DNA of 64,000 nt from Heterodontus francisci (Eukaryota). The notes under the pieces are model-generated. The model ran no database searches. It was not told where the DNA came from and saw only the letters and a list, made by a program, of their open reading frames with translations. Within the stretch, counting starts at the first letter, position 1; each line of letters opens with the position of its first letter. The stretch covers positions 90,003,691-90,067,690 of the forward strand of contig NC_090387.1 of the NCBI RefSeq assembly GCF_036365525.1, read 5' to 3'. Below, one piece after another: positions 2,975 to 64,000 of the stretch. Position numbers and translations under genes: made by a program.

Positions 2975-4930
2975 CTCCTGGTTACAGGGAGGTACCAGAG
3001 GATTCTATAGTGGCAAATGTGACACTCTTATTCAAGAAAGGGTGTAAGGACAGTCCTAGCAACTACAGGCCAGTTAATTTAACATCAGTAAGGTTTTAGA
3101 AAGAATAATCAACATACATATCAACGGACACTTGGAGAGGTTCGAGTTACTAAAGAATAGTCAGCATGGATTTGTAAAAGGGAGATCATGCTTGACTAAT
3201 CTAGTTGTATTTTTTGATGAAATAACAGAGAAGGTTGGTGAAGGGAATGCGACGGAAGTACTTGAATAAAGTACTTGATAAAGTACCACATAAAAGGCTG
3301 GTAAAGAAAATTGAGGCTCATGGAATAGGAGGTTCAGTGTACAATTGGATAATAGAAGTTAGCTTCAAGACAAAAACAGTGAGTTATAGTACATAGTTGC
3401 TTTTTGGACTGGAAGATGGTAGACAGTGATGTTCCCCAAGGTCCTGTGATGGGACCACTGTTTATTGCTATATAGAAATGACTTGGATCTTTACATACTG
3501 AGCAGAATCTCAAAATTTCTGATGACACCAAAGTTGGAGAAGCAGCAAACAGTGAGCATGACATGAATCACCTGCAACAGGAGTGGCGCAGTGGTTAGCA
3601 CCGCAGCCTCACAGCTCCAGCGACCCGGGTTCAATTCTGGGTACTGCCTGTGTGGAGTTTGCAAGTTCTCCCTGTGTCTGCGTGGGTTTCCTCCGGGTGC
3701 TCCGGTTTCCTCCCACATGCCAAAGACTAGGCTAATTGGCCTTTATAAATTGCCCCTAGTATAGGTAGGTGGTAGGGAAATATAGGGACAGGTGGGGATG
3801 TGGTAGGAATATGGAATTAGTGTCAGATTAGTATAAATGGGTGGTTGATGGTCGGCACAGACTCAGTGGGCCGAAGGGCCTGTTTCAGTGCTGTATCTCT
3901 AGACTAGACTAGACTAGACAATTTCAAAATAAGGGAGAAGCCAGGACGTAGATGGGCTAGAGGAGTAGGCAGAAAGGTGACAGATGGAATTTAATACTGA
4001 CAAGCAAGAGGTGATGCATTTTGGGAGAAGGAGTAGGGAAAGATAATATATGCTTAATAGCACTGTTCTAAAGAGTGTGCAGGAACCGAGGGACTGGGGG
4101 TGCATGTGCATGGATCTATGAAGGTGGCAGGACATGTTGAGAAAGTGGTTAGTAAGCATATGGAATTTTGGGAGTTCATAAATGGAGGCATTGAGTACAA
4201 AAGCAGGTATATTATGCTGAACCTTTGTTAAGCTCTGGTTAGTCCTCAACTGGAGTATTGCGTCCAGTTCTGATTACCACACTTCAGGAAGGACGTGAGA
4301 GTCCTTGAGATGGTGCAGAGGAGATTTACCGGAATGGTTCCAGGGATGGGAGATTTTAATTACAAGGTTAGGTTTGGAAAAACTGTTTTTGTTCCCCTTA
4401 AAACAAAAGAGATTGAGGAGAGATTTAATAAAAGTGTACACGATTATAACAGGCCTCAGATTAGTTATAGATGAGCAATTAACGCCATAGCATACAAGGC
4501 TACGGGGAAAATGGGATTAGAATGGTTAGGTGCTTGATGGCCTGCACGGACACCATGGGCCGAAGGGCCTGTTTCTGTGCTGTATAACTCTGTGATTCTA
4601 TGAATCTCTAAAATATTGTTCCTATTACGAATGGTACAAGGACTAGGAGACACACATAGAAAATATTGGGCAAGAGATGCAGTGGGAATGTAAGGAAGCA
4701 ACTTTTTTTTGAAGCGGGTGCTAAGGACCGGGAACTCGCTGCCCACAAGGGTGGTGGAAGTGGAGACAATCAATGACTTCAAGAGGAAGTTGGATGGCTT
4801 GAAGGAAATGGACTTGCAGGGTACGGAGATCGAGCCGGTGAGTTGGACTGATGCATAGCTCCGTGGAGCGCCGGCATGGACTCTATGAACTGAATAGCCT
4901 CCTTTTGTGCCGTAAATGATTCAATGACTA
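2975..4930 (+). mobile_element. Degraded CR1 LINE fragments interrupted by a SINE
   Basis: EVPEDSIVANVT, NYRPV, QHGFVKGRSCLTNL, LEYCVQF remnants; gggccgaagggcctgtttctgtgctgta tail. Confidence 0.8.
3582..3919 (+). mobile_element. HE1/V-SINE-like tRNA-derived SINE
   Basis: A/B-box head (gtggcgcagtggttagc...gggttcaatt), core gcgtgggtttcctccgggtgctccggtttcctccc, CR1-derived tail with (ctaga)n. Confidence 0.9.
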
Positions 4931-6534
4931 TGGCTGTCTAATGTCCATTTGCCAAATCTAGTAATTTGACATTTTCAATTCAGTTTTCAAAAATCTGGAA
5001 ATAAAATATGGTAATAGCCAAAGTGACCATGAATTTGTCGTGTTCCCCTGAAACCCCAATTGGTTCAATAATGTTTGTCATAGAAGGGCATCTGTCATCC
5101 TTAACCGCTCTGTCCGTAACTCCAGTCCACATCAACGTGGTTGGCTCTTAACTTTCAACTGAAGTCTCCTGACAAGCCCACCATCACCTTTTAAGGTCAA
5201 GCAGGGATAAACAATAAGTACCGGCCTTGCCAGCAATGCCCACAGCTCCAAAATTAATACAAAATCCTGCAGAATGTCACGAGCTGAAGATACAAGTTTT
5301 ACTATTTATTGTTCACGCGTGTGCACAGACCACGGAAGCGGAACTTCGGATGCATTTGCTGTAATGTGAAAAAAAAATTCGAGGAGACAGGTGACAAGAA
5401 ATCAGCATTCTTTTCAGTCGCCTCATTGGCATATCAGATTATCATTGGGTGGAATTTGTTTCTTCGCTGCACAGGCTGCGAAACCGAGCAAGCACTGAGA
5501 ACCTTATGGAAAATTATGTGTTATTGTCCTGCATGTCCCATAGATTGAAATCAATGGACAGAAATGTGTTGGCATTTACTCGAGGTTTTCCCACATATAC
5601 CGTCTGCTGCATGAAATTATGGATGCCGAGAAGCGAACAAAAGCTCCAACACATCAAGAGAGGCATTCCAACCATAGCTGAATCTTTCAGCAAATCTTTT
5701 CCCTTAGATACGTTTGTCATTTGATTTCCATTTGTATCCCGGGTTCTAATTCTTCTCCACATTTAAGTCGTCAAAGTCTACCTTACAGTGAAAGAAAGAG
5801 ATGGATATTGATATAGATGGAAAATATATAGATATATAATTGCATACATATTGTATAGATGTAGATATATTTTTTGATATTCTGGATGAATTAAAGACTA
5901 AACGTAGGATTCTAAGTGTAGTGCAGAGGTGACTGCCAACTTCAAATAATCTCCTGTGTTCCACGTTCTAATAATTGTTTGCAGAATTCTATTCTCTATT
6001 TACTTGTTTGAACATTGAAAGTGACCTGACTACAGTTGTCCCAGACTCCCCTCTGTCACCCTGTGCTAATTCAATTCCATCCATTCTATAATTGCAACAC
6101 AGATTTTCCAATTATGCCCAATTTCATAACATGATCTAAATGGTTTTTCCTATTTTTGCTGCAACAAATGTGTAGCTTCCAGGTTTTTTCAAACAGCGAG
6201 TCAGGTCAATGGACTGCAGGGATGAACTTTGCTCTTCCGTTTTTCTTGATATTCTTCACCTCGAAATTTCATGGGATTTCCATAACCTCAGTGGAATATT
6301 CGCGGAAATCTCAGAGAACCGACTTAAAGAGCGTTTTCAGCCATTTCCCCCATTTCTCCGGGGTTTCTCGTAATCACGAAGCCAAGTAAGAGACGGGTTG
6401 TAGCCGAACAAAGAGAAACGGAATGCCTGTAATTAACAAGTAAAACGGTGAAGCGTAAGAAATGTCTTAATAGTGCTTTTATAGTGCGGTTGCACTTAAC
6501 ATTAATTCTGCCAAGCTTTGGCAATGGTCGTTAT

Positions 6535-6985
6535 GACAGCTGTCGCTCAGTTGGTAGCAACCTGTCATCGAACTCACAAGGTTGTGGGTTCATCATCGCA
6601 TCCTGGAGAGTTGAGCACACTATGTATGTTGACATTTCGGTGCAGTACTGAGGGAAATCTGCACTGTTGAGGGTGCCGTCTTTCGAATGAGACGTTGGAT
6701 TGAGGCCTCGGTTTCTTTCTAAGGTGAATCCCGTGACACTATTTGAAGCGGAACAGGGGAATTACCCCTCGTGTCCTAGTCAATATTTATCCTTCAATCA
6801 ACATCACCAGAACAGATTATCTGCTCACTAACATGCAGTCGGCGGGAGCTTGCTGTGAGAAAATCGGCAGGCACGTTTCCCACAGTACAACAGTTACTGC
6901 ACTTCAAAAAGTATTTCTTTGGCTGTTAAAATGCTTTGGGGTGTCTTGAGGTCGCAAAAGGCGCTATATAAATGCAAGCTTTTTC
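6535..6985 (+). mobile_element. Deu-SINE (SacSINE1-like)
   Basis: tRNA-like head gctcagttggtagca, core gtgcagtactgaggga...caatatttatccttcaatcaacatcac, tail aaggcgctatataaatgcaag. Confidence 0.75.
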
Positions 6986-7073: not shown

Positions 7074-7241
7074 ACCAAGCAAAGGACACCTGATAATAAG
7101 CTGACTTACGCTGCTGTATCTATGGCAGGGTCAAAGAAAACAGCAAAGCCTAATTATAAGGATAAGAGCACGGAGTATGCTCAGCTACGGATTGAAAAAC
7201 GAAGAGCAGACGTGATTTACACCGAACCGAAAGTCACGTGA
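7074..7241 (+). CDS. Gene B terminal cytoplasmic exon with ITIM/ITSM-like motifs (paralog of gene C; upstream exons lie outside the window)
   Basis: Acceptor gattttacag, phase 0: TKQRTPDNKLTYAAVSMAGSKKTAKPNYKDKSTEYAQLRIEKRRADVIYTEPKVT*. Motifs LTYAAV, TEYAQL, VIYTEP. The preceding ~5 kb aligns with the distal introns of gene C. Confidence 0.82.
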   Translation, partial: TKQRTPDNKLTYAAVSMAGSKKTAKPNYKDKSTEYAQLRIEKRRADVIYTEPKVT

Positions 7242-9352: not shown

Positions 9353-12300
9353 TGGCTGGGGGATGGGAACCAAATGAGGAGGTCAGTGGACAGTAAGGAG
9401 GTAGTAAGTAAAGCCTGTAAGGAACTAGATAATGAAGTCAGCATGACGAAAGGAAAGAGTCGGCAGGGAGCAGATGATGAAAGCAAAGGGACTGGTGGTC
9501 TGAGGTGCATTTGTTTAGATTAGATTTTTTTTAGATTAGAGATACAGCACTGAAACAGGCCCTTCGGCCCACCGAGTCTGTGCCGACCATCAACCACCCA
9601 TTTATACTAATCCTACAGTAATCCCAAATTCCTAACAAACATCCCCAACTGCCCCTATACTTCCCGACCACCGACCTATACTAGTGAAAATTTATAATGG
9701 TCAATTTACCTACCAACCTGCAAGTCTTTTGGCTTGTGGGAGGAAACCGGAGCACCCGGAGAAAATCCACGCAGACACAGGGAGAACTTGCAAACTCCAC
9801 ACAGGCAGTACCCAGAATCGAACCCAGGTTTCTGGAGCTGTGAGGCTGCAGTGCTAACCACTGCGCCACTGTGCCGCCCAAATGCACGAAGTGTAGTAGG
9901 TAAAGCAGATTAATTTAGGGCTTGGGTTAGTACCTGGGAGTATGATGTTATTGCTATTACTGAGACTTGGTTAAGGGAAGGGCATGATTGGCAACTAAAT
10001 ATCCCAGGATATCGATGCTTCAGGTGGGATAGAGAGGGAGGTAAAAGGGGTGGAGGAGTTGCATTACTGGTCAAAGAGGATATCACAGCTGTGCTGAAGG
10101 AAGGCACTATGGAGGACTCGAGCTGTGAGGCAATATGGGCAGAACTCAGAAATAGGAAGGGTGCGGTAACAATGTTGGGGCTGTACTACAGGCCTCCCAA
10201 CAGCGAGCGTGAGATAGAGGTACAAATATGTAAACAGACTATGGAAAGATGTAGGAGCAACAGGGTGGTGGTGATAGGAGATTTTAATTTTCCCAACATT
10301 GACTGGGATTCACTTAGTGTTAGAGGTCGAGATGGAGCAGAATTTGTATGGAGCATCCAGGAGGGTTTTCTAGAGCAGTATGTAAATAGTCCAACTCGGG
10401 AAGGGGCCATACTGGACCTGGTGTTGGGGAATGAGCCCGGCCAGGTGGTTGAAGTTTCAGTAGGGGACGACTTTGGGAATAGTGATCACAATTCCGTAAG
10501 TTTTAGAATACTCATGGACAAAGACGAGAGTGGTCCGAAAGGAAGAGTGCTAAATTGGGGGAAGGCCACCTATACCAAAATTCGGCAGGAGCTGGGCAAT
10601 GTAGATTGGGAGCAGCTATTTGAAGGTAAATCCACATTTGATATGTGGGAGGCTTTTAAAGAGAGGTTGATTAGCGTGCAGGAGAGACATGTTCCTGTGA
10701 AAATGAGGGATAGAAATGGCAAGATTAGGGAACCATGGATGACAGGTGAAATTGTGAGACTAGCTAAGAGGAAAAAGGAAGCATACATAATGTTTAGGCG
10801 GCTGAAGAAAGACGAAGCTTTGAAAGAATATCGGGAATGTAGGACCAATCTGAAACGAGGAATTAAGAGGACAAAAGGGGTCATGAAATATCTTTCGCAA
10901 ACAGGGTTAAGGAAAATCCCAAAGCCTTTTATTCATATATAAGGAGCAAGAGGGTAACTAGGGAAAGGATTGGCCCACTGAAGGACAAAGGAGGAAAGTT
11001 ATGCGTGGAGTCAGAGAAAATGGGTGAGATTCTAAACGTGTACTTTGCATCAGTATTCACCGTGGAGAGGGACATGACGGATGTTGAGGTTAGGGACAGA
11101 TGTTTGATTACTCTTGGTCAAGTCGGCATAAGGAGGGAGGAAGTGTTCGGTATTCTAAAAGGCATTAAGGTGGACAAGTCCCCAGGTCCGGATGGGATCT
11201 CTCCCAGGTTACTGTGGGAAGCGAGAGAGGAAATAGATGGGGCCTTAACAGATATCTTTGCAGCATCCTTAAACACGGGTGAGATCCCGGAGGACTGGAG
11301 AATTGCTAATGTTGTCCCCTTGTTTAAGAAGGGTAGCAGGGATAATCCAGGTAATTATAGACCGGTGAGCCTGACGTCAGTGGTAGGGAAGCTGGTGGAG
11401 AAGATACTGAGGGATAGGATCTATTCCCATTTGGAAGAAAATGGGCTTATCAGTGATAGGCAACATGGTTTTGTGCAGGGAAGGTCATGTCTTACCAACT
11501 TAATAGAATTCTTTGAGGAAGTGACAAAGTTGATTGATGAGGGAAGGGCTGTAGACGTCATATACATGGACTTCAGTAAGGCGTTTGATAAGGTTCCCCA
11601 TGGTAGGCTGATGGAGAAAGTGAAGTAGCATGGGATCCAGGGTGTGCAAGCTGGATGGATAAAGAACTGGCTGGGCAACAGGAGACAGAGAGTAGCAGTG
11701 GAAGGGAGTTTCTCAAAATGGAGACATGTGACCAGTGGTGTTCCACAGGGATCCGTGCTGGGACCACTGTTGTTTGTGATATACATAAATGATTTGGAGG
11801 AAAGTATAGGTGGTCTGATTAGCAAGTTTGCAGACGACACTAAGATTGGTGGAGTAGCAGATAGTGAAGGGGACTGTCAGAGAATACAGCAGAATATAGA
11901 TAGATTGGAGAGTTGGGCAGAGAAATGGCAGATGGAGTTCAATCCGGGCAAATGCGAGGTGATGCATTTTTGAAGATCCAATTCAAGAGTGAACTATACA
12001 GTAAATGGAAAAGTCCTGGGGAGAATTGATGTACAGAGAGATTTGGGTGTTCAGGTACATTGTTCCCTGAAGGTGGCAACGCAGGTCAATAGCGTGGTCA
12101 AGAAGGCATACGGCATGCTTTCCGTCATCGGACGGGGTATTGAGTACAAGAGTTGGCAGGTCATGTTACAGTTGTATAGGACTTTGGTTCGGCCACATTT
12201 GGAATACTGCGTGCAGTTCTGGTCGCCACATTACCAAAAGGATGTAGATGCTTTGGAGAGGGTGCAGAGGAGGTTCACCAGGATGTTGCCTGGTATGGAG

Positions 12301-35500: not shown

Positions 35501-36224
35501 TACCTAATTTGAAATTAGACGCCAATACATCCCAGGGTCGATTTTCCATTCAATGGAAATAAACATCGAGCGCAGTTTATAAATGGAGAGTGCATTCAAT
35601 AACGCTGCTGAGCGGAACGTTGAAGATTAGTCCGAGTATATTTTTGACCAAATATTCAGCAGCCATAATTATTTGAAAGTACCCAACATTTGCGGTTGCT
35701 TTCTCCACCTATTACCACCTACCGGCGACGCTGATGGTTGAGCCTGTTCCATTTACAATCCTGCTTCGCAGCGTTCTGACTCCGCAGTAATAGACCCCAG
35801 AATCCTGCGCACTGATATTCAGGAGATGAAAGGAGGCTCCGCCTTGTTTAAAACGGAGAATTTTTTTCCTGCTGTCGGAAGCTGTTTGCAGAAAGTTACT
35901 TTCGCCAAGTTTCCACCAATAAACTTCCACATCTGAGTTATCTTGAAAAATGGGAAATGTGCAATAAAACGTGACGTTTGAACCTACGAGGGCGCTCGTG
36001 CTTTCAGGAGCTTGGAAGACTTGGAACTGAGCGTCAATAGCAACTGTCAGAAAACAATGATGTTAATTATATAACTATCTATAAGACACGAAATGTCAAT
36101 GCAAAGGCAAATTATAGATTCAAAAAGAGAGAGGAGAGGGAAGAAAGGAAAAGAAGCAGCAGAAGATACCTGTGCACATAATCCCCAGGACTCTTATAGA
36201 CTGAAGCGCATTAGCAATAAACAT
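32451..36224 (-). CDS. Gene A: non-rearranging VJ-C1 IgSF membrane receptor, putative activating type (SIRP/NKp30-like); exons 36224-36170, 36043-35723, 33360-33028, 32542-32451
   Basis: Four exons with GT-AG introns, all phase 1, joining into an open frame: leader, V-set domain ending in a J-like GxG strand, C1-set domain, TM with N-terminal Arg and a short tail. Exon-for-exon paralog of gene C (leader 55 nt and V exon 321 nt in both). Confidence 0.88.
33028..33360 (-). CDS. Gene A exon 3, C1-set Ig domain plus short stalk
   Basis: Acceptor ccccttacag, donor G|gtaaac. VPPTPLRIFP...LVCKTDEFYPEALNLTWYKDG...DGLYEVSS...YTCQVSH: FYP, W and YxCxVxH C1 signatures. Confidence 0.92.
33845..34430. 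repeat. Degenerate 24-bp AT-rich minisatellite (about 24 units, consensus ~TAGCAAATATGTTGCAGTATAAAA) in the gene A V-C1 intron
   Basis: Consecutive units tagtaaatatgttttagtattaaa / cagaaaatgtgttgcaacataaaa / cgctaaatattttgtggtattaaa and onward. Confidence 0.8.
35265..35358 (-). mobile_element. Mini Penelope terminal insertion with 8-bp TSD
   Basis: ggtgttaa at 35257-35264 and 35359-35366; the insert stops within the ccgaagaagggtcactgacccgaaac motif. Confidence 0.75.
35723..36043 (-). CDS. Gene A exon 2, V-set Ig domain with germline-joined J-like strand
   Basis: Acceptor ttttctgacag, donor G|gtagg. VAIDAQFQVFQAPESTSALVGSNVTFYCTFPIFQDNSDVEVYWWK...NISAQDSGVYYCGVRTLRSRIVNGTGSTISVA: B-strand Cys, Trp, DSGVYYC, GTGS. 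Confidence 0.93.
36170..36224 (-). CDS. Gene A exon 1, leader (MFIANALQSIRVLGIMCT)
   Basis: ATG at 36224, 55 nt, donor ACAG|gtatct; aligns with the gene C leader (LQ..VLGI..T). Confidence 0.8.
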
Positions 36225-37055: not shown

Positions 37056-40000
37056 ATCATTCAATCATTGAAGGGTTAAGGCACAGAAAGAGGGCACTTG
37101 GCCCATCGTGTCTGTGCCGGCCGAAAAACGATCCATCTATTCTAATCCCACCTTCCAGCATTTGGTCCATAGGCATGTAGATTACGGCACTTGAGGTGCA
37201 TATCCAGACTTCTTTTGCATGGGTTGAGGGTCTCTGCATCAATTACTCTTTCAGGCAGCGAGTTCTGGACCCCCACCACCCTCTGGGTGAAAATGTTTTT
37301 CCTCATCCCTCCTCCAATTTTTCAACCGATTGCTTCAAATCTATGCCCCCTCATCACTGACCTCTCTGCTAATGTGAATAGACCCTTCACCTCCACTTTA
37401 TCCAATGCAATGTAATGAGGTGACCAGAACGGCACACAGTACTCAAGTTGTGGCCTAACCAATGAGTTATGCAGTGTCAGCAAAACCTCCCTGCTCTTGT
37501 ATTCTATACCTCGGCTGATAAATGAAAATATTCCATATGCCTCCTTAACCACCTCATCGACCTGTACTGCTACCTTCAGGGATCTGTGAACATTCAGTCC
37601 AAGGTCCCTCAGTTCCTCTACACTTCTCACTTTTTTCCCATTAATCGTGTATTTCTTTGCCTTTTTGACCTTCCCAAGTGCGTCACCTCACACTTCTCCG
37701 AGTTGAATTCCATTTGCCACTTTTCTGCCCATCTGTCCAGACCATCAATATCTTCCTGCAGCCTACAGCTATCCTTTTTGTTATCTAGAACATGGCTATT
37801 CTTTGTTTCGTCTGCAAACTTCTTGATCATGCCCCCTACATTTACATGCAAATCGTTAATATATGCCACAAAAGCAGGGGATCCAGCCCTGAGGCCTGCG
37901 GAATGCTGCTGAAAACAGCCCTCCAGTCGCTAAAACAGCCATCAACAATTATGCTTTGTTTCCTGCCACTGAGCCAATTTTGCACCCACCTTGCTGCATT
38001 TCCCTGGATCCCATGGGATTTTTTTTCTACCAAACTGCCACATGGGATCTTGTCAAAAGCCTTGCTAAAATCAATGCAGACCACATAAACTGCACTACCG
38101 TCGTCTATCTTCCTTGCTACTTTTTCAAAAAAATTCGGTCAAGTTTGGTCAAACAAGAACTTCCCTTGAAAAATCCCTGCTGACTATCCTTGATTAACCT
38201 GTGCCTTTCTAAGTGACAGTTTATCCTGTCTCTCAGAATTCTCGATAATTTGCCCACTACTGGGATTAAACTGACTGGCCTGTAATTATTCGGTCTATCC
38301 TTCACTCCCTTTTTAAACAGAGGTACAACGTTAGCAGTTGTCCAATTCTCCAGCACCACACCTGTATACAATGAGGACTTTATATTGATGCTCAGACACT
38401 GTGCTATTTCCTCTCTTGCTTCTTTTAACAGCCTAGGATATATTTCATCTGGCCCTGGTGATTTATAAACTTTCAAGGATGCTAATCCCATTAATACTTC
38501 CTCTCTCCCTATCATTATCACATCCAATACTTCACACACTTCCTCTTTAACTACAATAACTGCATCATCCCCCTCTTTTGTGAAGATAGATGCAAAGCAT
38601 TCAGTAAGAACCATACCAATATCTTACACCCCTACACATAGGTTACCTTGTTGGTCTTTTATGGGCCCTCCCCTTTCCTTAGTTATCCTCTTGCTCTTAA
38701 AGTACTGATCTTTGGGTTCACCTTTATTTTGATTGCCAATATTCTTTCGTGCCCTCTCTTTGCTTTCCTAATTTCCTTTTTGATTTCACCCCTCCACTTT
38801 CTATACTCCTCTCGGCTGTCTGTAGTATTGAGTTCTCGGTGTTGGACATAAGCTTTCCTTTTCTGCCTTATCTTACCCTGTAGGCTCCTTGACATCCATG
38901 GGGCTCTAGATTTGGCTGCCTCATCGTTTTTCTTTGTGGGAACATGTTTACCCTGAACCACTTGAATCTCCCATTTGAATGCCTCCCACTGTTCTGACAC
39001 TGATTTCCCTTCAATAGTTGTTTCCAGTCCATTTTCGCTAAACCACTCCTCATTTTAATAAAATTGGCCTTGCCCCAATTGAGAGCTCGAAGGCCTGCTC
39101 TGTCTCTGTCCTTTTCCATACCTGTGTTAAAACTGACTGAATTATGATCACTACCACCAAAATGCTCTCCCAGTGCCAGCCCTTCCACCATCTTTATTTC
39201 CTAATGCTAAGTCTAAAACTGCGCCCTCTCTTGTTGGAAGTGGGCAAAAAAAGTTCTCCTGAATGCACCTCAAGAATTCTGAACCCTCCACTCCTTTTAC
39301 ACTAAAACTATCCCAGTTAATATTGGGGTAGTTAAAATCCCCTGCTATTACTGCCTGATTGTTCTTGCAATTCTCAGAGATTTGCCGACATATGTGCTCT
39401 TCTCTCTCCCTCCGACGGTTTGGGGGCCTTAGTACACTCCCAGCAGTGTGATTGTCCCTTTTTTGATCCATGGCTCAATTCATATGGCCTCATTTGATGA
39501 ATCTTCCAATATCTCATCCCTCCTCACAGCTGTAATAATTTTCTTGACCAGAATTTCCACTCCCCCTCCTTTCTTAACCCCTCCCTATTGCGTCTGAAAG
39601 CCCTTTAAACAAGAATGTTGAGCTGCCATTCCTGTCCCTCCTTAAGCCATGTTTCTGTTATAGCTATGGTATCATACTGCCATCTGTTTATCTGTGCCCT
39701 CAGCTCATCTGCTTTATTTGCTATACTCCTGGCATTGAATTAGATACCCTTGAGCACTGCCAAACGTTTTTATTTATTTTTGACCCGCGTTTCCTGTGTC
39801 TTCCAGAGTCATCCATTAATTTTCTACCTTCCATTTTCATTTCTGATTTTTTCCCAACTGAGACTACCCTCAGGTGCTCACTCCCTTGTCAAACTAGTTT
39901 AACACCCACTCCCCTCAAATAGCACTAGCAAAACGTCCCTCAAGGAACTCAGTCCCAGCTCTGTTCAGATGCAACCTCATCTCCCCCAGTGCCGGTCCAA

Positions 40001-41949: not shown

Positions 41950-43270
41950 CACACACTGCTGCCACTGTGGGTCGGTGGTGCAGGGAGTGAATTTTGCGGA
42001 TGGGGTGACAATCAAGCGGGCTACTTTGTCCTGGATGGTGTCGAGCTTCTTGGGTGTTGTTGGAGCTGCACCCATCCAGGCAAATAGAGAGTATTCCATC
42101 ATACTCATGACTTGTGCCTTGTAGATGGTGGACAGGCTTTGGGGAGTCAGGAGCTGAGTTACTCAGCGCAGGATTCCCAGCCCCTGACCTGCTCTTGTAG
42201 CCATGGTATTTATAAGGCTGCCCCAGTTAAGTTTCTGGTCAATGGTAACGCCCAGAATGTTGATAATGGGGAACTCAGTGATTGCAATGCCATTGAATGT
42301 CAAGGAGAGATGGTTAGATTCTCTCGGGTTTTAGAAGGTCATTGCCTGACAGTTGAGTGCGACGAATGTTACTTGCCACTTGCCAGCCCAAACCTGGATA
42401 TTATCCAGGTCTTGCTGCATTTCTACATGGACTGCTTCAGTATCTGAGGAGTTGCGAATGGTGCTGAACATTGTGCAATCATCAGCGAACATTCCCACTG
42501 CTGTCCTTATGATTGAAGGAAGGTCATTCATGAAGCAGCTGAAGATGCTTGTTGTCTAGGACATTACCTTGAGGAGTTCTGGCATTGATGTCCTGGAGCT
42601 GAGATGACTGATTTTCAACAGCCACAACCATCTTCCTTTGCGCTAGGTATGACTCCAGCCAGCAGACAGTTTTCTCCGATTCCCATTGATTCCAGTTTTG
42701 CTAGGGTCCCTTGATACTCGGTCAAATGCTGCCTTGATGTCAAGGGCACTCACTCTCACCTCACCTCTTGAGTTCAGCTCTTTAGTCATGTTTGTATCAA
42801 GGGTGCAATGAGTCAGCAGCTGAGTGGTCCTGGTGGAATCCAAACCAAACAGGTTCTTGTTAAGCAAGTGCCAGTTGATAGTACCGTCGACGACACCTTC
42901 CATCACTTTACTCATGATCGATAGTAGACCGGTGAGGCAGTAATTTGTCAGGTTGGATTTGCCCTCCTTTTTTGTGTACAGGACATTCCTGGGTAATTTT
43001 CCACATTATCGCGTAGATGCCGTTGTTGTGGCTGTACTGGAACAGCTTGGAGAGGGGCACGGCAAATTCTGGAGCAAAGGTCTTCAGACCTATTGCCAGA
43101 ATGTTGTCAGGTCCCATAGCCTTCAGTCGTTTCTGGATGTCACGTGGAGTGAATCGAATTGGCTGAAGACTGCCCTCTGTGATCCAGGGAACTTCGGAAG
43201 GACGCCAAGTTGAATCAGCCACTTAGCACCTCTGCCTGAAGATTGCTGCAAATGCTTCAGTCTTATATTT
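41950..43270 (-). mobile_element. Second non-LTR family RT fragment
   Basis: KAMGPDNI, ALDIKAAFDRV, MFADDCT, MEYSLFAW. Confidence 0.85.
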
Positions 43271-53653: not shown

Positions 53654-53708
53654 ATGTTAGCGACTGTTGTACTTCAGTGCCTCTCTGTTTTGGGGATCAG
53701 TTTCACAG
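53654..53708 (+). CDS. Gene C exon 1, leader (MLATVVLQCLSVLGISFT)
   Basis: agaATG, hydrophobic signal-peptide-like sequence, 55 nt, donor ACAG|gtacct. Confidence 0.85.
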
Positions 53709-56700
53709 GTACCTGTTCGTTCTACAACTTGCCTTTTTATTAAATGTGGCAGTTATTAACTTTACTTTGATATAGCATGTTTCATTTCCCTTTGTACATA
53801 TTCCCTGATTCCCTTATTCTGGCGCTTTTCCTTCTGTCATACTCTCTCATTATTGTATTTTCCGATAGGCTGCAGCGAAACTTCGGTCAAAGTGACTCAG
53901 CTCCCTGAAAGTACAAGCACAAACTCGGGTACAAATGTTTCATTTCATTGCACGCTTCCCTTCTTTCAAGATGGCCCAACTGTGAATGTCTCCTGGTGGA
54001 AGCAGGGTGATAATCAATATCTAAGCACAGGACAAGATGGCAGAAAAGTAATTGGCTTCAAGACTAAATTCAGCGGCTTCCTACAAATAATTAATGTGAG
54101 TGTACAGGACTCAGGAGTATACTATTGCACTGTCACCCATCGAGGCAAAATCGTTGGAAACGGAACGGGATCCAATTTAGCTGTATGGGGTAAGGATAAA
54201 AAAAAGCGAATGAGATCCATGTAACTGTAATATTTCACAACTCGCAAAATTTATTGATTGTACTTCGAAGGATTCAGATCGCAAATTAAATTCTATCCTT
54301 TTAATATGAATACATTGAAATTGCACTTGTGACGGCTGCAGTTATTTTCTGATATGCATCACAATATTTCAGCAATATTGACCAAGACAAGGATTATCGC
54401 TTAGTTGTTTTATCCCAAAATGCACAGTAAACGTATGCAACAAACTACTGAAGTTATAATTGCAGGATCATTTACGGAGGTGTATATCTCGACAGTATTA
54501 GATGCTACCGCGCGAATCTGAAACAGTGAGCATAGATCTTACCCTATTTGAGATTTAGTGTCTTTCTGTTACGAGCGGCTGACTGTTTCTATCGGGATTC
54601 AGATTTCTGTAATTATAATTTAGCAATCTATATGGCAGGATCTTTGAACGGTCATATTACCAACAGCTAAAGTTTACACTCGGTAGCTTGAGCATCCCGC
54701 CACATTTTTTCTTCATGATTTTGACCTCCTTAAATAAGGTATCATCCTGGAACTTGGTGGCAATTTCCCTCTAGTTTGGTAAATTATATGTTATCATCAG
54801 TTTTTATGTTCAACAGGGTGGAATTGTCCGCAGCGGTACCGCGAAACAGGGCGAGCAACGCAAATTACATCCTGCTCAATTTTCTTTCCCATTACAACAG
54901 AAAATTGGGCAAGCTATAAACCGGCGACTCACTCGGTATCATCCCATTTCTTTTCTTTTTGCCCCGCGGTAACATTACAATTACCGCCGAAATAAGAGTG
55001 AGACTTGTGAAAATCCGTTTACGATATACCTACTGATAGTGCAAAGTGAACATTGATGCAGTGTGAGAAAGTCTGGCCCGTCCCACCCGCGAGCTCCTCC
55101 AGTGTATAGTTAGAAATGGGCTCAAACAAAACGTTCGGTTGTTAACCTTGATTGATGTCCCATTAACGATATTTTCCTTCATTTTTTTAGTTCCGCCAAC
55201 TCCACTGAAAATTAAATCTCAGCAACCTGAGAAGGATTCATCTGTTTCTCTGACTGTTCTGTGTATGACATCTCCCTTTTATCCGGAAAACATCAGTTTC
55301 ACTTGGTATAAGGATGGCACCAAAACTACAACAGGGATAAATAACGTTATCGAACCCAACACCGACGGACTATATGAAGCCTCCAGCCGTTTGCAAGAGA
55401 CGCAGTTTGTCCTTCCCGGAACTGTTTATACTTGCCTGGTCTCTCACAGTAGCCTCCAAATTTCAGCCATGGCCACTTACATTGTCACTTATCCCAGCAC
55501 AGGTAAGATTTCTGATAAAAGCGAAGAATATTACAGCATAGGAAGAGGCCAGTTGGCCCAGCGTGCCTGTGCGGCGTCTTTGAAAGAGCTGTCCAGTTTA
55601 GTCCCCATAACTGTGCAAATTAGACCCCTTCAAGCAACATGTCCAATTGCCTTTTGAAAATTCCTGTATAAATTGCTTCCAACAACATTTCAGCTTGTGT
55701 ATTCTACATCTCAACAACCCCCATGAGAAAAGAATTTCCCTCAAAACTCCTCTAGTTATTTTTTGCCAATAGTTTTAAACCTATGCCTGCTGGCTATCGA
55801 CCCATTTCTTCAGAGGAAAATTTCTCCCTACTTAATTCATTAAAACCCTTCATAATTTTGAATACGTCTATTTGGTATCTTTTTAATCTCCTCTAGTCTA
55901 ATGTGAAAATCCCAGGTTCGCCATTCTCTTCACGTAGCTGAAGGCCCTCCTCCCTTCTAAAGCCGGTAAATCTCGTCTGTATTCTCTCCATGATCTTGAC
56001 AGTCTTCTTAAAACATGGTGCCCAGAACTGTGCACAATAATCTAACTGAGAATTAACCAGAGATTTGTCAAATTTTGCATGGCTTCCCTGTTTTTGTATC
56101 CAATGCCACTAGCCACAAAACCAATTATCACACAAGCTTCCTTAACCGGCTTATTAACTTGCTCTGCCACCTTCAAAGATTTGTAAATATGCACCCTCGC
56201 TTCTCCTGAATCAGTAGGCCCCTCAAAATAGCACATTCAGATTATACTACCTCTCCATGTTGTTTCATCCAAAGTGGAAACTCACACTTATCCACATTGA
56301 ATTACATCTACCATTCGTCTGCTTCTCTGACTGTTCTGTGCATGTATTTTCTCCTAATGTCTGCTACTACCCTTCTCACCATTTGCTATGTTACCAATTT
56401 TGCATCATTAACAATTTTCAAATTGTACTCCCTATATCAAGTCCAGGTTATTTATGCATATCAGGTAAAGTAGTGGTCCTGATACTGATCCCTGAAGGAA
56501 TCCCACTGCATATTTCTCTCCTGTCAAAAAATCCACTCTCTGCCACCTATCACTTAGCAAATTGTATACCCAAGGTACCTCGGTGCTATAAATCTTATAT
56601 GCCATAGCTCAACATTCTTTTGTTTCATAAAACTGTACCTTAATCCAAAAATATTAAATAAAGATTTGCATTTATATAACGATTTTCACGACCACTGGAC

Positions 56701-59700
56701 GTCTCAACAGCCAATGAAGTACTTCTGAAGTATCGTCAATGTTGTAATGTAGTAAACGTGACAGCCAATTTGCACACAGCAAGCTCCCACAAACAGCAAT
56801 GTGATAATGACCATAGAATATGTTTTGTAATGTTGATTGAGGGATAAATATTGGCTAGCACACCAGGGATTACTCCCCTGCTCGTCTTTGAAATCCTTCC
56901 ATGGTCTCTTTTGCATCCACTTGAGAAGGCAGGTGGGGCTTTGGTTAAACATCACATCTGTAACACAGCACCTCCAACAGTGCAGCACTCCTTCAGTACT
57001 ATATTGGAGTGTCAGCTTTAATTTTTGTGTTCAAGCTCTAAAGTAGGACTTGAACCTAGAACCTTGCAACTCAGAGGCAAGGGTGCTACCAACTGAGCCA
57101 TGGTTGATGCCAACTTCAACACTTGACTAAAAAAAATCGAATTTTCTATCTTTCAGTGCATTTTCTTAATGAATTAAATAACGTACAGATTCGGATTTAT
57201 ATATTTCATTTGCATCTTGTAGGTGATGAGATCACCCGTTATTTGCTGATTTCTGCATCTGCAGGGGGCGGGTTGGTATTATCGATGCTAGCTCTCATCA
57301 TTGTAAACCGATGTCTCTCAAAGAAAAACAACGGTGAGAAATATATGTTTCTTTTTGTTTTACTAAAGTTAGTACAAGTTTCAAAGAGACAGAGGTGATT
57401 ACTGAACACCAAAGTTTTCCTGTGATTTACAATATATGGGATCCTACACACTTCAGGGTACCAGTGTAGAGATAGATTAAAAGTTCTGAAATCGAGTGGA
57501 ATTTTCCAAGGTCTCCAGCCGCCGACAGAGATTCGGGATCGAATTTTATGGGCCTGCTAGTGACTAGAATGGAGGCGGGGGCCATAAAATATCGACGGAA
57601 GGCTGTGGGTGGACTGCCCTTAGCTTCCCATTGCCTTTCATGACAGGAAAGGTCTTCCCATCCAGAGGCCAATTGAGGCCATTAAGAGGCCAATTAATAG
57701 CCACGTAAGGGCCTCTTCCCTTCGCTGCTGCCATCCTAATAGAGGTGGGGGTGCCTGGAATTGGGGATATTCCAGTAAAACAGGGTGACCTCCCTACAGT
57801 CTTTGGTGGGCCTCCTCTGTGGGCAATCTGTGGCCCACAGAGGGTCACCAGCGGCAAAGGCCACCTCTCCATGAATAGCGCCCCCCCCCCCCCCACCCCA
57901 ACGACCTAGATAGCTCTCCCCCGAGCCAGAATTTGCCGGACAAGCCGGACTAGCGCTGGCGACCTGACCACGCTTTCTGGGGTTCTGGGGTTCCAGTGAT
58001 CGGCCTCTTGTAGTATCAGCATTGGTCACCGCTCCCAGTAATGATGCTAGTACTATTGATCTGCCGGCCCTCTGATTGACTAATAGTGCTTGGAGGTGGG
58101 TTCCTCATCCTGAAAGAGATGGGTTGCACGGCCCAGGCAGTTAGTTGCCTGAGTGTCGTTAAATAGAGATGGGGGGTGGGGGGAGGTGGTCTACAAAGGG
58201 CTGAGGCGAGGTTCTTCTCTCCTTTTAGGCCCAGCGTCGGGACCCCTGCGGGCTCGAGGAAATTCTGCCCTCGGACTCAGTGGCTTCTTTATTGCAAAAT
58301 CTCCTTTCATTGCCTGCGATTTAACGCCATTGGGTCAATGAATGTAACATTTTGGGTCATGTCAGTGCGATGTTTCAATCAGTCTCACACTACCTCAATG
58401 GCATCTGAACAATTTTACTTCTATTGTCAGAAGTGATTACAAACCAAGCAATTCTGAACAACAAATGTGATACCTAGGTCATGTTATAATTTACAATGAA
58501 TCAACCTGGGCTGTAAACTGAGAGAGGGGAATGTGCAACGGGACTCGGGTATCCTCCTACACCAGTCGCTGAAGGTGTAACAGGCGATAAAAAGGGAAAA
58601 TGGCATGTTGTCCTTCATAGCGAGAGGATTCGAGTACAGAAGCAGGGATGTCTTGCTGCAATTAAACAGGGCCTTGGTGAGGCCACACCTGGAATATTGT
58701 GTGCAGTTTTGGTCTCCTTATCTGAGGAAGGATATTCTTGCTATAGAGGGAGTGCAGCGTAGGTTTACCAGACTGCTTCTTGGGACGGCGGGACTGATGT
58801 ATGAGTTCGTTAGGATTATATTCGCTGCAGTTCAGAAGAGTGAGGTGGGATCTCAAAGAAACCTATAAAATTCTAACAGGACTTAACAAGGTAGATGCAG
58901 GAAGGATGTTCCTGATGGTGGGGGAGTACAGAACCAAAGGTCACAATCTAATGATACGGGGTAAACCTTTCAGGACTGAGATGAATGGCGGAACAGGCTC
59001 CAAGGGCCGAATGGCCTGCTCCTGCTCCTATTTTCTATGTTTCCATGTTTACCAGAAGTGTCTTTCCAAGCCGAGTAAATGTTTAATCTTAAGTCTTAAA
59101 CTTCATTCGTCAACAGGAGTGCAGAACGATGGTGCAAGATCCAACTCTCCTGAACAGGTAGGTTTTCATAATTCGTAGTAATGTATTTCAAATGTAAATA
59201 TATACATAACAGTATTGTAATCTATTTAATGCAATAATTTGTCAAGTTTAATTCCCTGCTGCACAGATTCATACAAAATAGCACAGGCTGAATTCAGCAC
59301 TTATGCAACAGACAGTCTTCTGCTGCACATAACTAGTAAAAGGGTGGTAAAAGGACGAGTGGGGCCGATTAAGGTCCTAAAAGGGAATTTATTCACGGAG
59401 GCAGAGAGCATCGCTGAGGGACTAAATGAGTACTTTGTATCTGTCCTTAACCAGGAATAGGTTGCTCCCAAAGTCATGGTGAAAGAGGAGGTTGTTGAGA
59501 CACTGGATGGGCTGAAATTGACAAAGAGGAGGTATTAGATAGACTGGCAGTACTTTAAGTTGATAGGTCACCAAGACTGGATGAGATGCATCTAAGGATA
59601 TTTAGGGACGTAAGAGTGGAAATTCCAGATGAACTGTCCATAATCTTCCAATCCTCCTTGGATACAGATGTGTTGCCAGAGAATTGCAAATGTTACACTA

Positions 59701-62700
59701 TTGTTCAAAACTGTGTGTAAGGGCAAGCCCATTAGCTACAGGCCTGTCAGTTTAACCTCAGTGGTGGGAAAGCTTTCAGAAACAATAACACAGCACACTA
59801 TCAATAGTCACTTGGTCAAAATTGGATTAAGCAAGTAAAGCCATCACATAATTCTTCAGGGCAAATCATGTATAACTAACTTACCTGATTTTGATGAGGT
59901 AACAGAGAGGGTTCATGAGGGTAAAGCAACTGATGTGCTGTGCGTGGACTTTCAAAAGGCTTTTGATCAAGTACCACATAACCCGGCTTGTCAACAAAAT
60001 TAGAGTCCAGGGAATAAATGGGACAGTAGAAACATGGATACGAAATTCGCTGAGTGACAGAAAGCAGGGAATAGTTGTGAACAGTTGGTTTTTGGACTGG
60101 AAGAAGGTATATAGTGGGATTCCCCAGGGGTTGGGACGTCTGTTTTTCTTGATACTACTAATGACATAGACTTGGTTGTACAAGGCACATTTTCAAAAGT
60201 TCCGGATGACACAAAACTTGGAAGCATTGTGAACTGTGAGGAGGATAGTGATAAACTTCAAGAGGACATAGGCAAGCTAATGCTTTGGCCAGCAAGTGGC
60301 AGATACAATTTAATGCAGAAAAGTATGAAGTGATTCATTTTGGTAGGAAGAACGCAGGAGAGGCAATATAAATTAAATGTTACAATTCTAAAGGGCTGCA
60401 GGCTCAGAGGAACCTGGGGGTGCATGCGCACAAATCATTGAAGAGTGCAGGGCAGGTTGAGAAATAGGTTAATAAAGTATATGGATCCTGAGCGTCAGAA
60501 AGAGGGGCACAGAGTACAAAACAAGGAAGTTGCGATAAACCTATATAAAATATTGGTTAGGCCTCACCTAGAGTATTGTTTCTAATTCGGGGCACCAGAC
60601 TTTCGAAAGGATGTGAAGGCATTAGGGAGGGTGCAGAAGGAGAGGGTAGAGGATGGTTTCAGGGATGAGGACATTCAATTACGTGGATTAGTTAGAGAAG
60701 CTGGGTCCCTTCTCCTTGGAGAAGAGATTAAGAGGAAATTTGATAGAGTTCAAAATCATGAGGCGCCTGGACAGAGTAGCTAGAGAGAAACTGTGCCCGT
60801 TGGCTGAAGGATCCAGAGCCAGATGACACTGTTTTAAGGTGATTGGCACAAAAGCAACAGTGACAGCAGGTAGTTAGGATTTGGAATGTACTGCCTGAGG
60901 GTATGGTGGATGCAGATTCAGTCATGGCTTTCAAAAGAGAACTGGATAGTTACTGGAAGAGAAAAAAAGTTCAAGACTACAGGGAAAAGGCAGACGAGCA
61001 AGACTAGGTTAGCTGCAGGAAGGATGTGAAGGTCTTTCAGAGGGTGCAGAGGAGATTTACCAGAATAATGCCAGGGATGGGGGATTTTAGTTGCAAGGCT
61101 AGGGTGGAAAAGCTGGATTTGTTCCCTTTAGAACAAAGTAGATTGAGGAAATATTTAATAGAGGTGTACAAGGCTATTTCAGGCTTACATATTTCAGACA
61201 AGGAAAAAAACTTTTCCCATTAGCAAGTGGTACAAGGACTAGGGGATACAGGTTGAAAGTATTGGGCAGGAGATGCAGGAAGAATATGAGGAAGCAACCT
61301 TTTTATGCAGCCGCTGGTAATGACCTGGAACTCGCTGTCCACAAGGGTGGTGTAAGTGGAGACAATCAATGACTTCAAGAGGACGTTGGATGATCACTTG
61401 AAGGAAATGGACTTGCAGGGCTATGGGGATCGAGCTGGGGATGGAACTAACTGCATAGCTCCGAGACGGGCAAGCGTGAACTCGATGGACCGAATGGCCT
61501 CCTTCTGTGCCGTAAATTATTCTAAGATTCAATGGCTGTCCAAGTCCATTAGCTAACTCTGGACTAAATCCAGTGCACAAGCGTTCAAATCCTGGCATGG
61601 TAGTTTGAGATGTTCAAATCAGTTTTCAAAAATCTGTAAGCAAAATATGGTAACAGCCAAAGTAACCATGAAGTTGTCGTGTTTCTCTTAAAACCCGAGC
61701 TGGTTTACTGATGTCTGTCAGAGAAGGGCATCTGCCGTCCTTAACCGGTCCGCTCTGTCCGTGACTCCTGTCCACATTAACTTGGTTGATTCTTAACTTT
61801 CATCTGAAGTCTCCTGACAAGCCCACCACCACCTTCGAAAGGCAGCCAGGGATAAGCAATAAGTGTTGGCCTTGCCAGCGATGACCACAGCGCCAACATT
61901 AATGTAAAATCCTGCAGAATATCACGAGCTGAGATGTAAGTTTTGCTATTTATTGTTCGCGCGCGTCTGCCCAGACCACGGAAGAGGAACTTCGGATGCA
62001 TTTGCTGCAATGTGAAAAAACACGAGGAGACCGGTGACAAGAAACCTGATTTCCTTTCAGGCGCCTCGTTCTGCCATCATATTATCCAACCGAATTTGGA
62101 ACAACCCCAACATCTTTGCCTTCACTCCTTGGGAGGAATTTGTTTCTTTGATGCACAGGATGCGAGGCTGAGCAAGCACTGAGAACCTTATCGGAAAATT
62201 TTGCGCTATTGTCCTCCATTCCTCGCAAATTTAAATCAATGGACAGAAATGTGTTGGTATTAACTCGAGGCTTTCCGATATATACCGTCTGCTGCATAAA
62301 AGTATCGACCCCAGGAAGCGAACAAAAACTCCAACACATCACCAAAGCTGACTCTTTCAGTAACTGCTTTCCCTGAGGTGTGTTCGACATTTGTTTTCCA
62401 TTTGTGTCACTCGTTCTGATTCTTCTCCACATTTAAATCGTCAAAGTCTACCCTGCACTTAAAGAGAGATGGATATAGATATAGATGGAAAAATATGAAT
62501 AGTTATATAATTAGATACATATTATATAGATATAGATGCATATGTTGTGACATTCTGGATGAATAAACACTGAACGGCGGATTTTAAGTTTAGTCCAGAA
62601 AGTGACTGCCAAGATTCAAATAATTGTTTGTGTTCCACGTTCTATTAATTGCAGAATTCTATTCTCCATTTACTTCCTTGATCATTGAAAGTGCCCTGAC

Positions 62701-63679
62701 TACAGTTGTCCCAGACTCCCCACTGTCACCCTGTGCTATTTCAATCCCATCAATTCGAAAATTGCGACACAGATTTTCCAATTATGCCCAATTTCATAAC
62801 ATGATCTAAATGGTTTTTCCTATTTTTGCTGCAACAAATATGTAGCTTCCAGTATATAAGCCTTGACAGCTGCAGGTTATTTCAAGCAGTGAGTCATGTT
62901 AATGGACTACAGGGATGAGCTTTGATCCCTCATATTTGGTAATTTTCTAGACCTGGAAATTGCATGGGGTTTCCATAACTTAATGGAATACTCTCAGAGA
63001 ACTGGCCAAAAGAGCGTTTTCAGCCATTTCCCCTATTTCTCCGGGGATTCTCGTAATCACGAAGCCAAGTGAGATCAGGAAACGGGTTGTAGCTCTGTGG
63101 AGTTCTGAAGACAGATTTTCACGAAAAAGCGTTTGGGCGTTCAGCAATAAACGCACGTGCAGCACACAAACGTCAATCTGGTTGGTAGGATCGCACTTCC
63201 CAATGAATGTATTTATATCAATTTCAATGGTGGGAAAATACATCGGGTCCTGTTGCCAGCAGCGCCTTCGCCGGAGTTTCCATTCTGCGCTCAGGGCTGG
63301 CGATGCTTAAAGCCCAGTCGCTAAAGACCAGACCCTCTTTTCACTGCCCCACCAACTGTTTATTTTTGTAAATAAGACTCATTCCGCCTGCTGGGCACTG
63401 ATGGCGCAGGCAGACACAGAGCAGCAGTGACTGATATCGCATCCATTCAGTTAATGGATGGACTATGGAGTTGCATTTTCCGTCCCTACTCGCATCCTTC
63501 TGCACACGGAGAGCCCAACCGAATTTATCTGACAACATAACAAGATATATATGTTTGTCCTTCAGTCCATGCAGGGCGCAGCCGATGTGATGGCGCCTTA
63601 TGCTGAACTCGAGATAACGAATTCCTTGAAAGCTCCAAGACCAAAGCATCAAGAAAGGACAACGCATGCCCAGATAGGG
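53654..63679 (+). CDS. Gene C: non-rearranging VJ-C1 IgSF membrane receptor, putative inhibitory type (SIRP-like tail), 3' incomplete; exons 53654-53708, 53869-54189, 55191-55502, 57223-57333, 59117-59157, 63566-63679
   Basis: Six GT-AG exons with intron phases 1,1,1,1,0,0 giving 954 nt (318 codons) without a stop. The terminal ITIM exon is predicted about 350 bp beyond the window by homology with 7074-7241. Confidence 0.88.
53869..54189 (+). CDS. Gene C exon 2, V-set Ig domain with germline-joined J-like strand
   Basis: Acceptor ttttccgatag, donor G|gtaagg. VKVTQLPEST...NVSFHC...VSWWK...[32 protein letters not shown]; 46/107 identical to gene A V with no gaps (hand count). Confidence 0.94.
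55191..55502 (+). CDS. Gene C exon 3, C1-set Ig domain
   Basis: Acceptor atttttttag, donor AG|gtaaga. VPPTPLKI...[20 protein letters not shown]...DGLYEASS...YTCLVSH. Confidence 0.93.
55520..56600 (-). mobile_element. Old CR1 3' fragment in a gene C intron
   Basis: SLKVAEQVNK...GIGYKNRE remnant; ccagaactgtgcacaata. Confidence 0.7.
56664..57105 (-). mobile_element. Deu-SINE (SacSINE1-like)
   Basis: Reverse complement of the 6535 family including head and ttgcatttatata tail. Confidence 0.78.
57223..57333 (+). CDS. Gene C exon 4, transmembrane (GDEITRYLLISASAGGGLVLSMLALIIVNRCLSKKNN)
   Basis: Acceptor catcttgtag, donor G|gtgaga, phase 1-1; about 22 uncharged hydrophobic/small residues followed by a basic stop-transfer segment. 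Confidence 0.87.
57494..58270. mobile_element. GC-rich MITE, possibly Harbinger-derived
   Basis: Imperfect termini gagtggaattttcc / ggaaattctgccc and internal quasi-symmetry. Confidence 0.4.
58520..59045 (+). mobile_element. CR1 3' fragment
   Basis: RGFEYRSRDVLLQL...LEYCVQFWSPYLRKD. Confidence 0.85.
59117..59157 (+). CDS. Gene C exon 5, small cytoplasmic exon (GVQNDGARSNSPEQ)
   Basis: Acceptor ttcgtcaacag, donor CAG|gtaggt. 41 nt converts phase 1 to phase 0, as the next exon requires; lies in a unique island between LINE fragments. Confidence 0.7.
59330..61530 (+). mobile_element. Degraded CR1 fragments (paralogous to 1473-4930)
   Basis: RVGPIK...LNEYFVSV and RT remnants. Confidence 0.8.
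63566..63679 (+). CDS. Gene C exon 6, cytoplasmic tyrosine-motif exon (SMQGAADVMAPYAELEITNSLKAPRPKHQERTTHAQIG)
   Basis: Acceptor tttgtccttcag, donor GGG|gtgagt, 114 nt, phase 0-0; YAEL motif; aligns with the ITIM exon at 7074. Confidence 0.78.
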
Positions 63680-63804
63680 GTGAGTAGCCGAACAAAGAGA
63701 CACGGAATGCCTGTAATTAACAAGTAAAACGGTGAAGCGTATGAAATACCTTAATAGTGCTGTTGTACTTAACACTAATTCTGCCAGGCTTTGGCAATAT
63801 TGGT

Positions 63805-64000
63805 TGTGTCAGCTGTTACTCAGTTGGTAGAACTCTGGCATCAAACTCAGAAGGTTCTGGGATCATCGTCGCACTCTAGAGACTTGAGCATTTAGTGTAG
63901 GTTGTCACTTCAGTGCAGTACTGAGGGATATCTGCTCTGTTGGGGGTTTCATCTTTCGAATGGGACGTTGGACTGAGGTTTTGGTTCCTTCTTTTTAAGA
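63805..64000 (+). mobile_element. Deu-SINE 5' part (paralog of 6535)
   Basis: ctcagttggtag...gtgcagtactgaggga. Confidence 0.7.

Follow-up and report, generated by a model that had tools for sequence, protein, structure and literature searches.

A tyrosine exon probably lost from one gene of a horn shark tandem receptor cluster by a 595-bp deletion at a GTAGC microhomology

Two immune-receptor genes, here called B and C, lie in a 64,000-nucleotide stretch of Heterodontus francisci (horn shark) DNA, hereafter the window, and differ by a block that carries a tyrosine-motif exon in C and is missing from B. This raises the question of whether B lost the block or C gained it, by what kind of event, and what the difference would mean for the predicted signalling of the two receptors. 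An initial annotation of the window had proposed a microhomology-mediated deletion that changed the number of signalling tyrosines between sister inhibitory receptors. Its coordinates for the GTAGC copies and the exon in B and C proved right when the sequence was re-read, and the features at the junction are as follows.

63089-63093, + strand: left GTAGC microhomology, in an intron of gene C
63094-63688 (equivalently 63089-63683), + strand: 595-bp block of gene C missing from gene B, with splice acceptor, exon and splice donor
63684-63688, + strand: right GTAGC microhomology, overlapping the exon donor GTGAGT (63680-63685)
6400-6404, + strand: single GTAGC at the deletion junction of gene B

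The left breakpoint in copy C reads ACGGGTT-GTAGC, and the right one reads GGGGTGA-GTAGC followed by CGAACAAAGAGA, while in copy B the lone GTAGC is preceded by the same ACGGGTT and runs directly into CGAACAAAGAGA. Pairwise alignment with MAFFT and with a global aligner agreed on a single clean gap of 595 bp, free of filler, which bears out the indel and its GTAGC boundaries. At the junction B and C are identical at 13 of 14 bases of the left flank and 57 of 60 bases of the right flank, and over the longer comparison of B 4610-6723 with C 61205-64000 at 1765 of 2065 aligned bases; self-BLAST likewise paired B 4610-6404 with C 61205-63093 and B 6400-6723 with C 63684-63999. A repeat search around the block found short pairs at chance level only. 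An imperfect 21-nt palindrome at 63440-63460, within the block and about 105 bases 5′ of the exon, is probably a chance occurrence.

Five of the six exons of C in the window translate exactly into the RefSeq proteins P0005/P0001, the sixth being matched by tblastn. Together with the last exon of B, they are:

53654-53708, + strand: gene C leader exon (exact translation)
53869-54189, + strand: gene C V-set exon, with the last strand (GNGTGS) in the same exon (exact translation)
55191-55502, + strand: gene C C1-set exon (100% to P0005/P0001 by tblastn)
57223-57333, + strand: gene C transmembrane exon (exact translation)
59117-59157, + strand: gene C first cytoplasmic exon, phase 1 to phase 0 (exact translation)
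63566-63679, + strand: gene C tyrosine exon, cytoplasmic, 38 amino acids, with APYAEL (exact translation)
7074-7241, + strand: gene B last exon, starting in phase 0, with LTYAAV (ITIM), TEYAQL (ITSM-like), VIYTEP and the stop (100% identical to the C-terminus of P0004)

The tyrosine exon of C (SMQG...APYAEL...AQIG) is 114 nt long, with ag/gt ends and phase 0-0. The first cytoplasmic exon of C ends in phase 0, the last exon of B starts in phase 0, and in the RefSeq model of B, P0004, the first cytoplasmic exon is followed directly by the last one with the frame kept; this join rests on the model and on the phases in C, since the upstream exons of B lie outside the window. The claim that the block holds a complete exon whose loss keeps the frame is thus borne out, and B would have stayed in frame because the lost exon is symmetric. 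In the encoded proteins a leader is followed by a V-set and a C1-set domain, one of each (both above the Pfam cut-off in P0005 and P0004), and then by a transmembrane segment and a tyrosine-bearing tail. Protein searches with the tyrosine exon and with the last exon of B returned three proteins each, all from Heterodontus francisci. Five close horn shark genes were recognized, namely B (XP_067905937), C (XP_067906080/81), 77 (XP_067906077), 78 (XP_067906078/79) and 35 (XP_067905935/36), and the tyrosine exon is found in the models of four of them (C, 77, 78 and 35) and missing from that of B.

The 3′ boundary of the exon varies somewhat. In most relatives, and in isoform X2 of paralog 78, the exon is 6 nt shorter at this end (…AQ|TKQ), and at 63674-63685 C carries AT in place of the upstream donor GT, so that the downstream donor alone remains. 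The two isoforms P0003 and P0007 of paralog 78 differ by two residues at the end of the tyrosine exon, which, by our reading of how the annotation pipeline works, hints at transcript evidence behind the models. A further candidate exon near 61977-62034 was rejected, being present in no model and out of phase with its neighbours.

Contigs from 4 of 12 sequencing runs were placed on 57100-64000 at 80% likeness, three of them (X5-X7) being guessed to be RNA. The bin of the tyrosine exon is covered in two of these three presumed RNA runs, with mean depths of 78.8 (X5) and 3.41 (X6), and the bin of the transmembrane exon has mean contig depths of 42.8 and 2.39, respectively. This cover fits a transcribed exon in C or in a paralog, which 80% likeness does not separate. 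The cover of the exon bin is unlikely to be spill-over from the neighbouring SINE, over which X6 is deeper than X5, whereas in the exon bin X6 is far shallower. Among the joints of these placements, the 15 listed out of 867 all fall in repeats. No evidential weight was given to X7, which has no cover on the transmembrane and tyrosine exon bins, or to the lack of cover of X5 and X6 over 62182-62874 and 63106-63336; X5 also has one intronic contig at 61831-62030. Over the block the DNA contig depth is 20-32, much as over neighbouring unique intron (22-34), while repeat bins range from thousands up to about a million; such a depth does not give copy number, and the assembly's own sample may be the source of the run.

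Another reading is that the gap is no fixed difference between the genes: the sequenced animal may carry a private or heterozygous deletion, or the tandem array may have been misassembled. The gap is seen in a single assembly, on which the RefSeq model of B also depends, and the DNA runs available with this stretch come from one sample, perhaps the assembly's own. Against this stand the clean junction, the high identity of its flanks and the microhomology, as well as the single consistent model of B, which lacks the exon and has no isoform pair, and we consider a private or artefactual gap improbable.

The direction of the event was read from the paralogs and from other species. Trees of the C1-transmembrane region, which took 23 of 30 chosen proteins (the seven without the anchor motif were left out), gave (C,(35,(B,77,78))) with the inner four supported at 99/93, and the ectodomain tree grouped B, 77, 78 and 35 at 100/100. 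Grouping the exon-bearing genes together without B was rejected on the ectodomain alignment (p-AU 2.46e-6), in which one outgroup row is mis-trimmed; this row, Hemiscyllium, has 85 residues, and its entry in the motif census is void. The ectodomain of B is 93% identical to that of 78, 91% to 77, 88% to 35 and 80% to C, so that C, called the sister of B in the initial annotation, is not its closest relative. Outside the horn shark, the exon is present in models of Heptranchias (P0014), Mustelus (P0017), Mobula (P0013/P0049), Amblyraja (P0009), Hemiscyllium (P0012) and Callorhinchus (P0018/P0020). Because B nests among exon-bearing paralogs and the exon occurs in distant cartilaginous fishes, the long form is, on these sequence comparisons, the ancestral one, and the difference is to be read as a loss of the block from B and no insertion in C.

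These comparisons also bear on two further readings. The first is that the block is a mobile element that inserted in C with GTAGC as its target-site duplication and was later exonised, and the 5-bp direct repeat flanking the block in C is what such an insertion would leave. The initial annotation had itself allowed for a high-copy element of this kind, but the block has no second copy within the 64-kb window and no Rfam match, and its DNA contig depth is like that of unique intron; its termini are not inverted repeats of each other (complementary at 2 of the first 9 bases and at 8 of 29), and they read TCT...TGA and not TG...CA. Moreover, the right GTAGC forms part of the splice donor, the exon is present in distant cartilaginous fishes, and the tree rejects a single late gain, which together make an insertion hardly credible. 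The second is that an older paralog without the exon donated the corresponding segment to B, by gene conversion or unequal crossing-over; one candidate donor in the horn shark is XP_067905932 (P0059), whose model also joins its first cytoplasmic exon directly to the last. However, the last exon of B is 96% identical to that of 77 and 93% to that of 78 but only 65% to that of P0059, the upstream exon of B is also of the 77/78 type, and the flanks of the junction match C closely. We therefore regard conversion as very improbable.

The loss of the block from B could then have come about as follows. A germline break would have occurred in the B lineage after the duplications that gave B, 77, 78 and 35, and would have been repaired by annealing of the two GTAGC copies, through microhomology-mediated end joining or an equivalent template slip. 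Both splice sites lie in the block and are gone with the exon, and the gene may have survived since the exon is symmetric, with phase-0 neighbours. Five or more bases of microhomology were found in 0.56% of 200,000 random deletions simulated in this intron. Ten indels of at least 5 bp separate B and C, among which the 595-bp one has 5 bases of microhomology and the other nine have 0-3, and one 5-base case among ten would arise by chance at approximately 5% by our own arithmetic. As a mark of mechanism the GTAGC microhomology is therefore modestly unusual and suggestive, and no proof, because it is one of ten B/C indels examined; in addition, the two copies are read from C, a cousin about 15% diverged and not the direct ancestor of B. 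Of the microhomology-mediated deletion first proposed, the deletion in B thus stands, and its mediation by the microhomology is what we infer. A cut of the RAG type was considered separately and rejected: CTCTGTG at 63093-63099 is one mismatch from the RAG heptamer read on the minus strand, and no nonamer was seen by eye at 12 or 23 bases.

The exon itself has a recognizable history. At the protein level it is similar to the beginning of the last exon: in C, 77 and Heptranchias P0014 alike, none of 5000 shuffles reached the observed score. Almost all of its DNA can be aligned to bases 1-116 of the last exon of B, with a score that none of 2000 shuffles equalled. The tyrosine exon therefore probably arose long ago by duplication of the two-tyrosine segment, the opening 39 codons of the last exon. 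Both tyrosines are kept in relatives such as Heptranchias (APYAAL...TVYAQ) and Mobula (VPYAAL...TVYAQ), while His stands in place of the second ancestral tyrosine in the four horn shark paralogs with the exon and also in Mustelus. The first tyrosine (Y-A-x-L type) is kept from chimaera through sharks and rays, and its motif matches the ITIM consensus in some relatives (VPYAAL, VHYAAL and VTYAAV). Such conservation argues that the exon may matter and that its loss may not be mild.

To what extent the loss would alter signalling was assessed by a census of tail motifs. By the definitions in the available text of PMC12151841, an ITIM is (S/I/V/L)xYxx(I/V/L) and a strict ITSM is TxYxx(V/I). The lost APYAEL fails the ITIM consensus with Ala at −2, the retained LTYAAV of B matches it, and TEYAQL fails the strict ITSM with Leu at +3 and is ITSM-like only. 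The tails of B, C, 77, 78 and 35 contain 4, 6, 5, 4 and 3 tyrosines, respectively, and each of the five, B included, has exactly one consensus ITIM (LTYAxV) and one TEYAQL, 23 residues apart. The proposed change in the number of signalling tyrosines thus holds for the raw tyrosine count and fails for the consensus inhibitory motifs, whose number is unchanged; the term inhibitory receptor is itself a prediction from the tail motifs. Since all five paralogs keep LTYAxV and TEYAQL, the loss likely trims predicted signalling and does not switch it. B is predicted still to recruit SHP-type phosphatases through this pair, which would now lie 38 residues nearer the membrane, and would have lost one non-consensus YxxL docking or sorting site. 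Taken as a whole, the reading in which B lost the 595-bp block with one cytoplasmic exon through germline repair across the GTAGC copies, and in which the predicted inhibitory signal was trimmed and not abolished, is the one that we think probably correct.

Tail tyrosines vary among the paralogs by further routes as well. Paralog 78 has Tyr changed to Ser in VISTEP, paralog 35 has a changed C-terminus without VIYTEP, as a frameshift would produce, and one isoform of C is short, ending soon after the APYAEL exon (models P0003, P0006 and P0001).

Across the wider family, the gene models contain 0, 1 or 2 copies of the exon, counts in which a missing exon may reflect skipping or an annotation gap, DNA having been seen for B only. 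Models with the transmembrane and last exons but without the tyrosine exon are horn shark P0059, Scyliorhinus P0040, Heptranchias P0027/P0058 and P0030, and Mustelus P0039, whereas Mobula hypostoma P0013 has two tandem copies, each with a consensus ITIM, and has lost the TEYA motif of its last exon. The cassette profile matched 28 of 57 proteins and missed diverged copies in P0043, P0051 and P0056, which were labelled by eye. A tree of 25 rows, 23 of them labelled (18 with and 5 without the exon), requires at least four exon changes, three of which are forced by the starred branches; P0059 and P0015 were left unlabelled, the two-copy Mobula protein was coded as having the exon, and P0018 is mis-cut and sits on a long branch. 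The exon label is no more clustered than in shuffles, 131-145 of 500 of which were as low as four changes.

Could the same deletion have had a large and selected effect, with APYAEL serving as a real third phosphatase or adaptor site and B acquiring a distinct signalling strength? The conservation of the first tyrosine across Chondrichthyes would fit this, as would the several ways in which the paralogs vary their tail tyrosines (B by losing the exon, 78 by a Tyr-to-Ser change, 35 by its altered C-terminus and C by its short isoform), the absence of the exon from models on several branches and its doubling in one Mobula model. Nevertheless, APYAEL departs from the ITIM consensus, its partner tyrosine is His in the horn shark, the core motif pair is invariant in all five paralogs, and four changes over 23 labelled rows are so often given by shuffled labels that they look like scatter and not selection; a large effect is accordingly unlikely in our estimate. 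Somewhat more room, at a still doubtful level, is left for the broader idea that the cartilaginous-fish V-C1 cluster tunes inhibitory strength through a symmetric tyrosine-cassette exon derived from the ITIM segment of the last exon and repeatedly deleted and re-duplicated (0, 1 or 2 copies), the loss in B being one base-resolved step under selection.

Some neighbouring features of the window were also observed. Gene A (P0037; 32454-36300, minus strand) is a V-C1 gene in the opposite orientation with a short tail without tyrosine and an Arg at the start of its transmembrane segment (VFPRFILSVL...), P0031 and P0047 of other species being alike; these features resemble those of an activating partner in a paired-receptor set. 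The first 124 residues of P0037 map to 42557-42915 and 37690-37836 (minus strand), which match many LINE-like repeats of the window, and were probably annotated in error; near 36171-36223 lies a plausible candidate for the true leader exon. Two LINE-like copies, at 1-1473 and 10515-12004, are 95.6% identical, mutually inverted and apparently recent insertions, one placed in the region of the last intron of B and the other downstream of B.

The locus thus offers a clean, polarised case, resolved to the base, in which one member of a young tandem array of shark immune receptors has lost an exon. Fast-evolving immune families are well known to lose symmetric exons in frame; new here is the recognition of the exon as a likely old duplicate of the start of the last exon, already worn in the horn shark. 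The tails of the family vary naturally in tyrosine content, and B compared with 77 and 78, whose ectodomains are 91-93% identical to its own, makes a ready panel for testing a third tyrosine beside the ITIM pair. No account of this receptor cluster or of the deletion was found in the literature searched, a search outside which most subscription journals lie.

Compared with known systems, the deletion in B has the form of microhomology-mediated end joining, in that one copy of a short repeat is kept and the DNA between the copies is lost with no filler. Microhomology-mediated end joining depends on polymerase theta/alt-EJ, and the enzyme pathway behind such a deletion is not readable from sequence. 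Repeated genomic exon deletion is reported for Drd3 in the available text of PMC12198306. The CEACAM1-like family of mammals, as described in the accessible part of PMC2832619, is likewise a set of tandem immune receptors in which whole exons were deleted and cytoplasmic ITIM/ITSM exons replaced; the exon deletion cited there changes the number of Ig domains and its tail swaps convert inhibitory to activating receptors, whereas horn shark B has lost one tail exon while the core motif pair stays. Non-rearranging VJ-C1 genes of the immunoglobulin superfamily are known in elasmobranchs (PMC10751288, as far as its available text goes), and these genes (UrIg, PRARP and NKp30) are like the horn shark ones in having an unsplit V exon followed by C1. 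The UrIg2 chain differs in its three constant domains (V-C1-C2-C3 by entry name), and the part of PMC10751288 at hand describes no membrane-bound, tyrosine-tailed tandem cluster.

Several proteins of the cluster carry the RefSeq title 'tyrosine-protein phosphatase non-receptor type substrate 1-like', and they are like SIRP-alpha (SHPS-1) and the SIRP family in having a V-set and C1-set ectodomain, a single transmembrane segment and repeated tyrosine motifs in the tail. SIRP-alpha has the layout V-C1-C1, with two C1 domains, whereas one C1 stretch per protein is found by Pfam in the horn shark. Among PDB sequences the best match was UrIg2 (76 bits), with SIRP-alpha second (55.8) and antibody chains at about 50, and membership of the SIRP family, or orthology with it, is accordingly putative. 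In PD-1 and BTLA, two motifs spaced by approximately 25 residues bind the tandem SH2 domains of SHP-2 (PMC12151841, in the text available); the predicted pair of B is 23 residues apart, compared with 25 in PD-1, and the Leu at +3 of TEYAQL is off the strict ITSM. By prediction from these motifs, the proteins of the cluster would work like tyrosine-motif receptors of the SIRP-alpha or PD-1 type.
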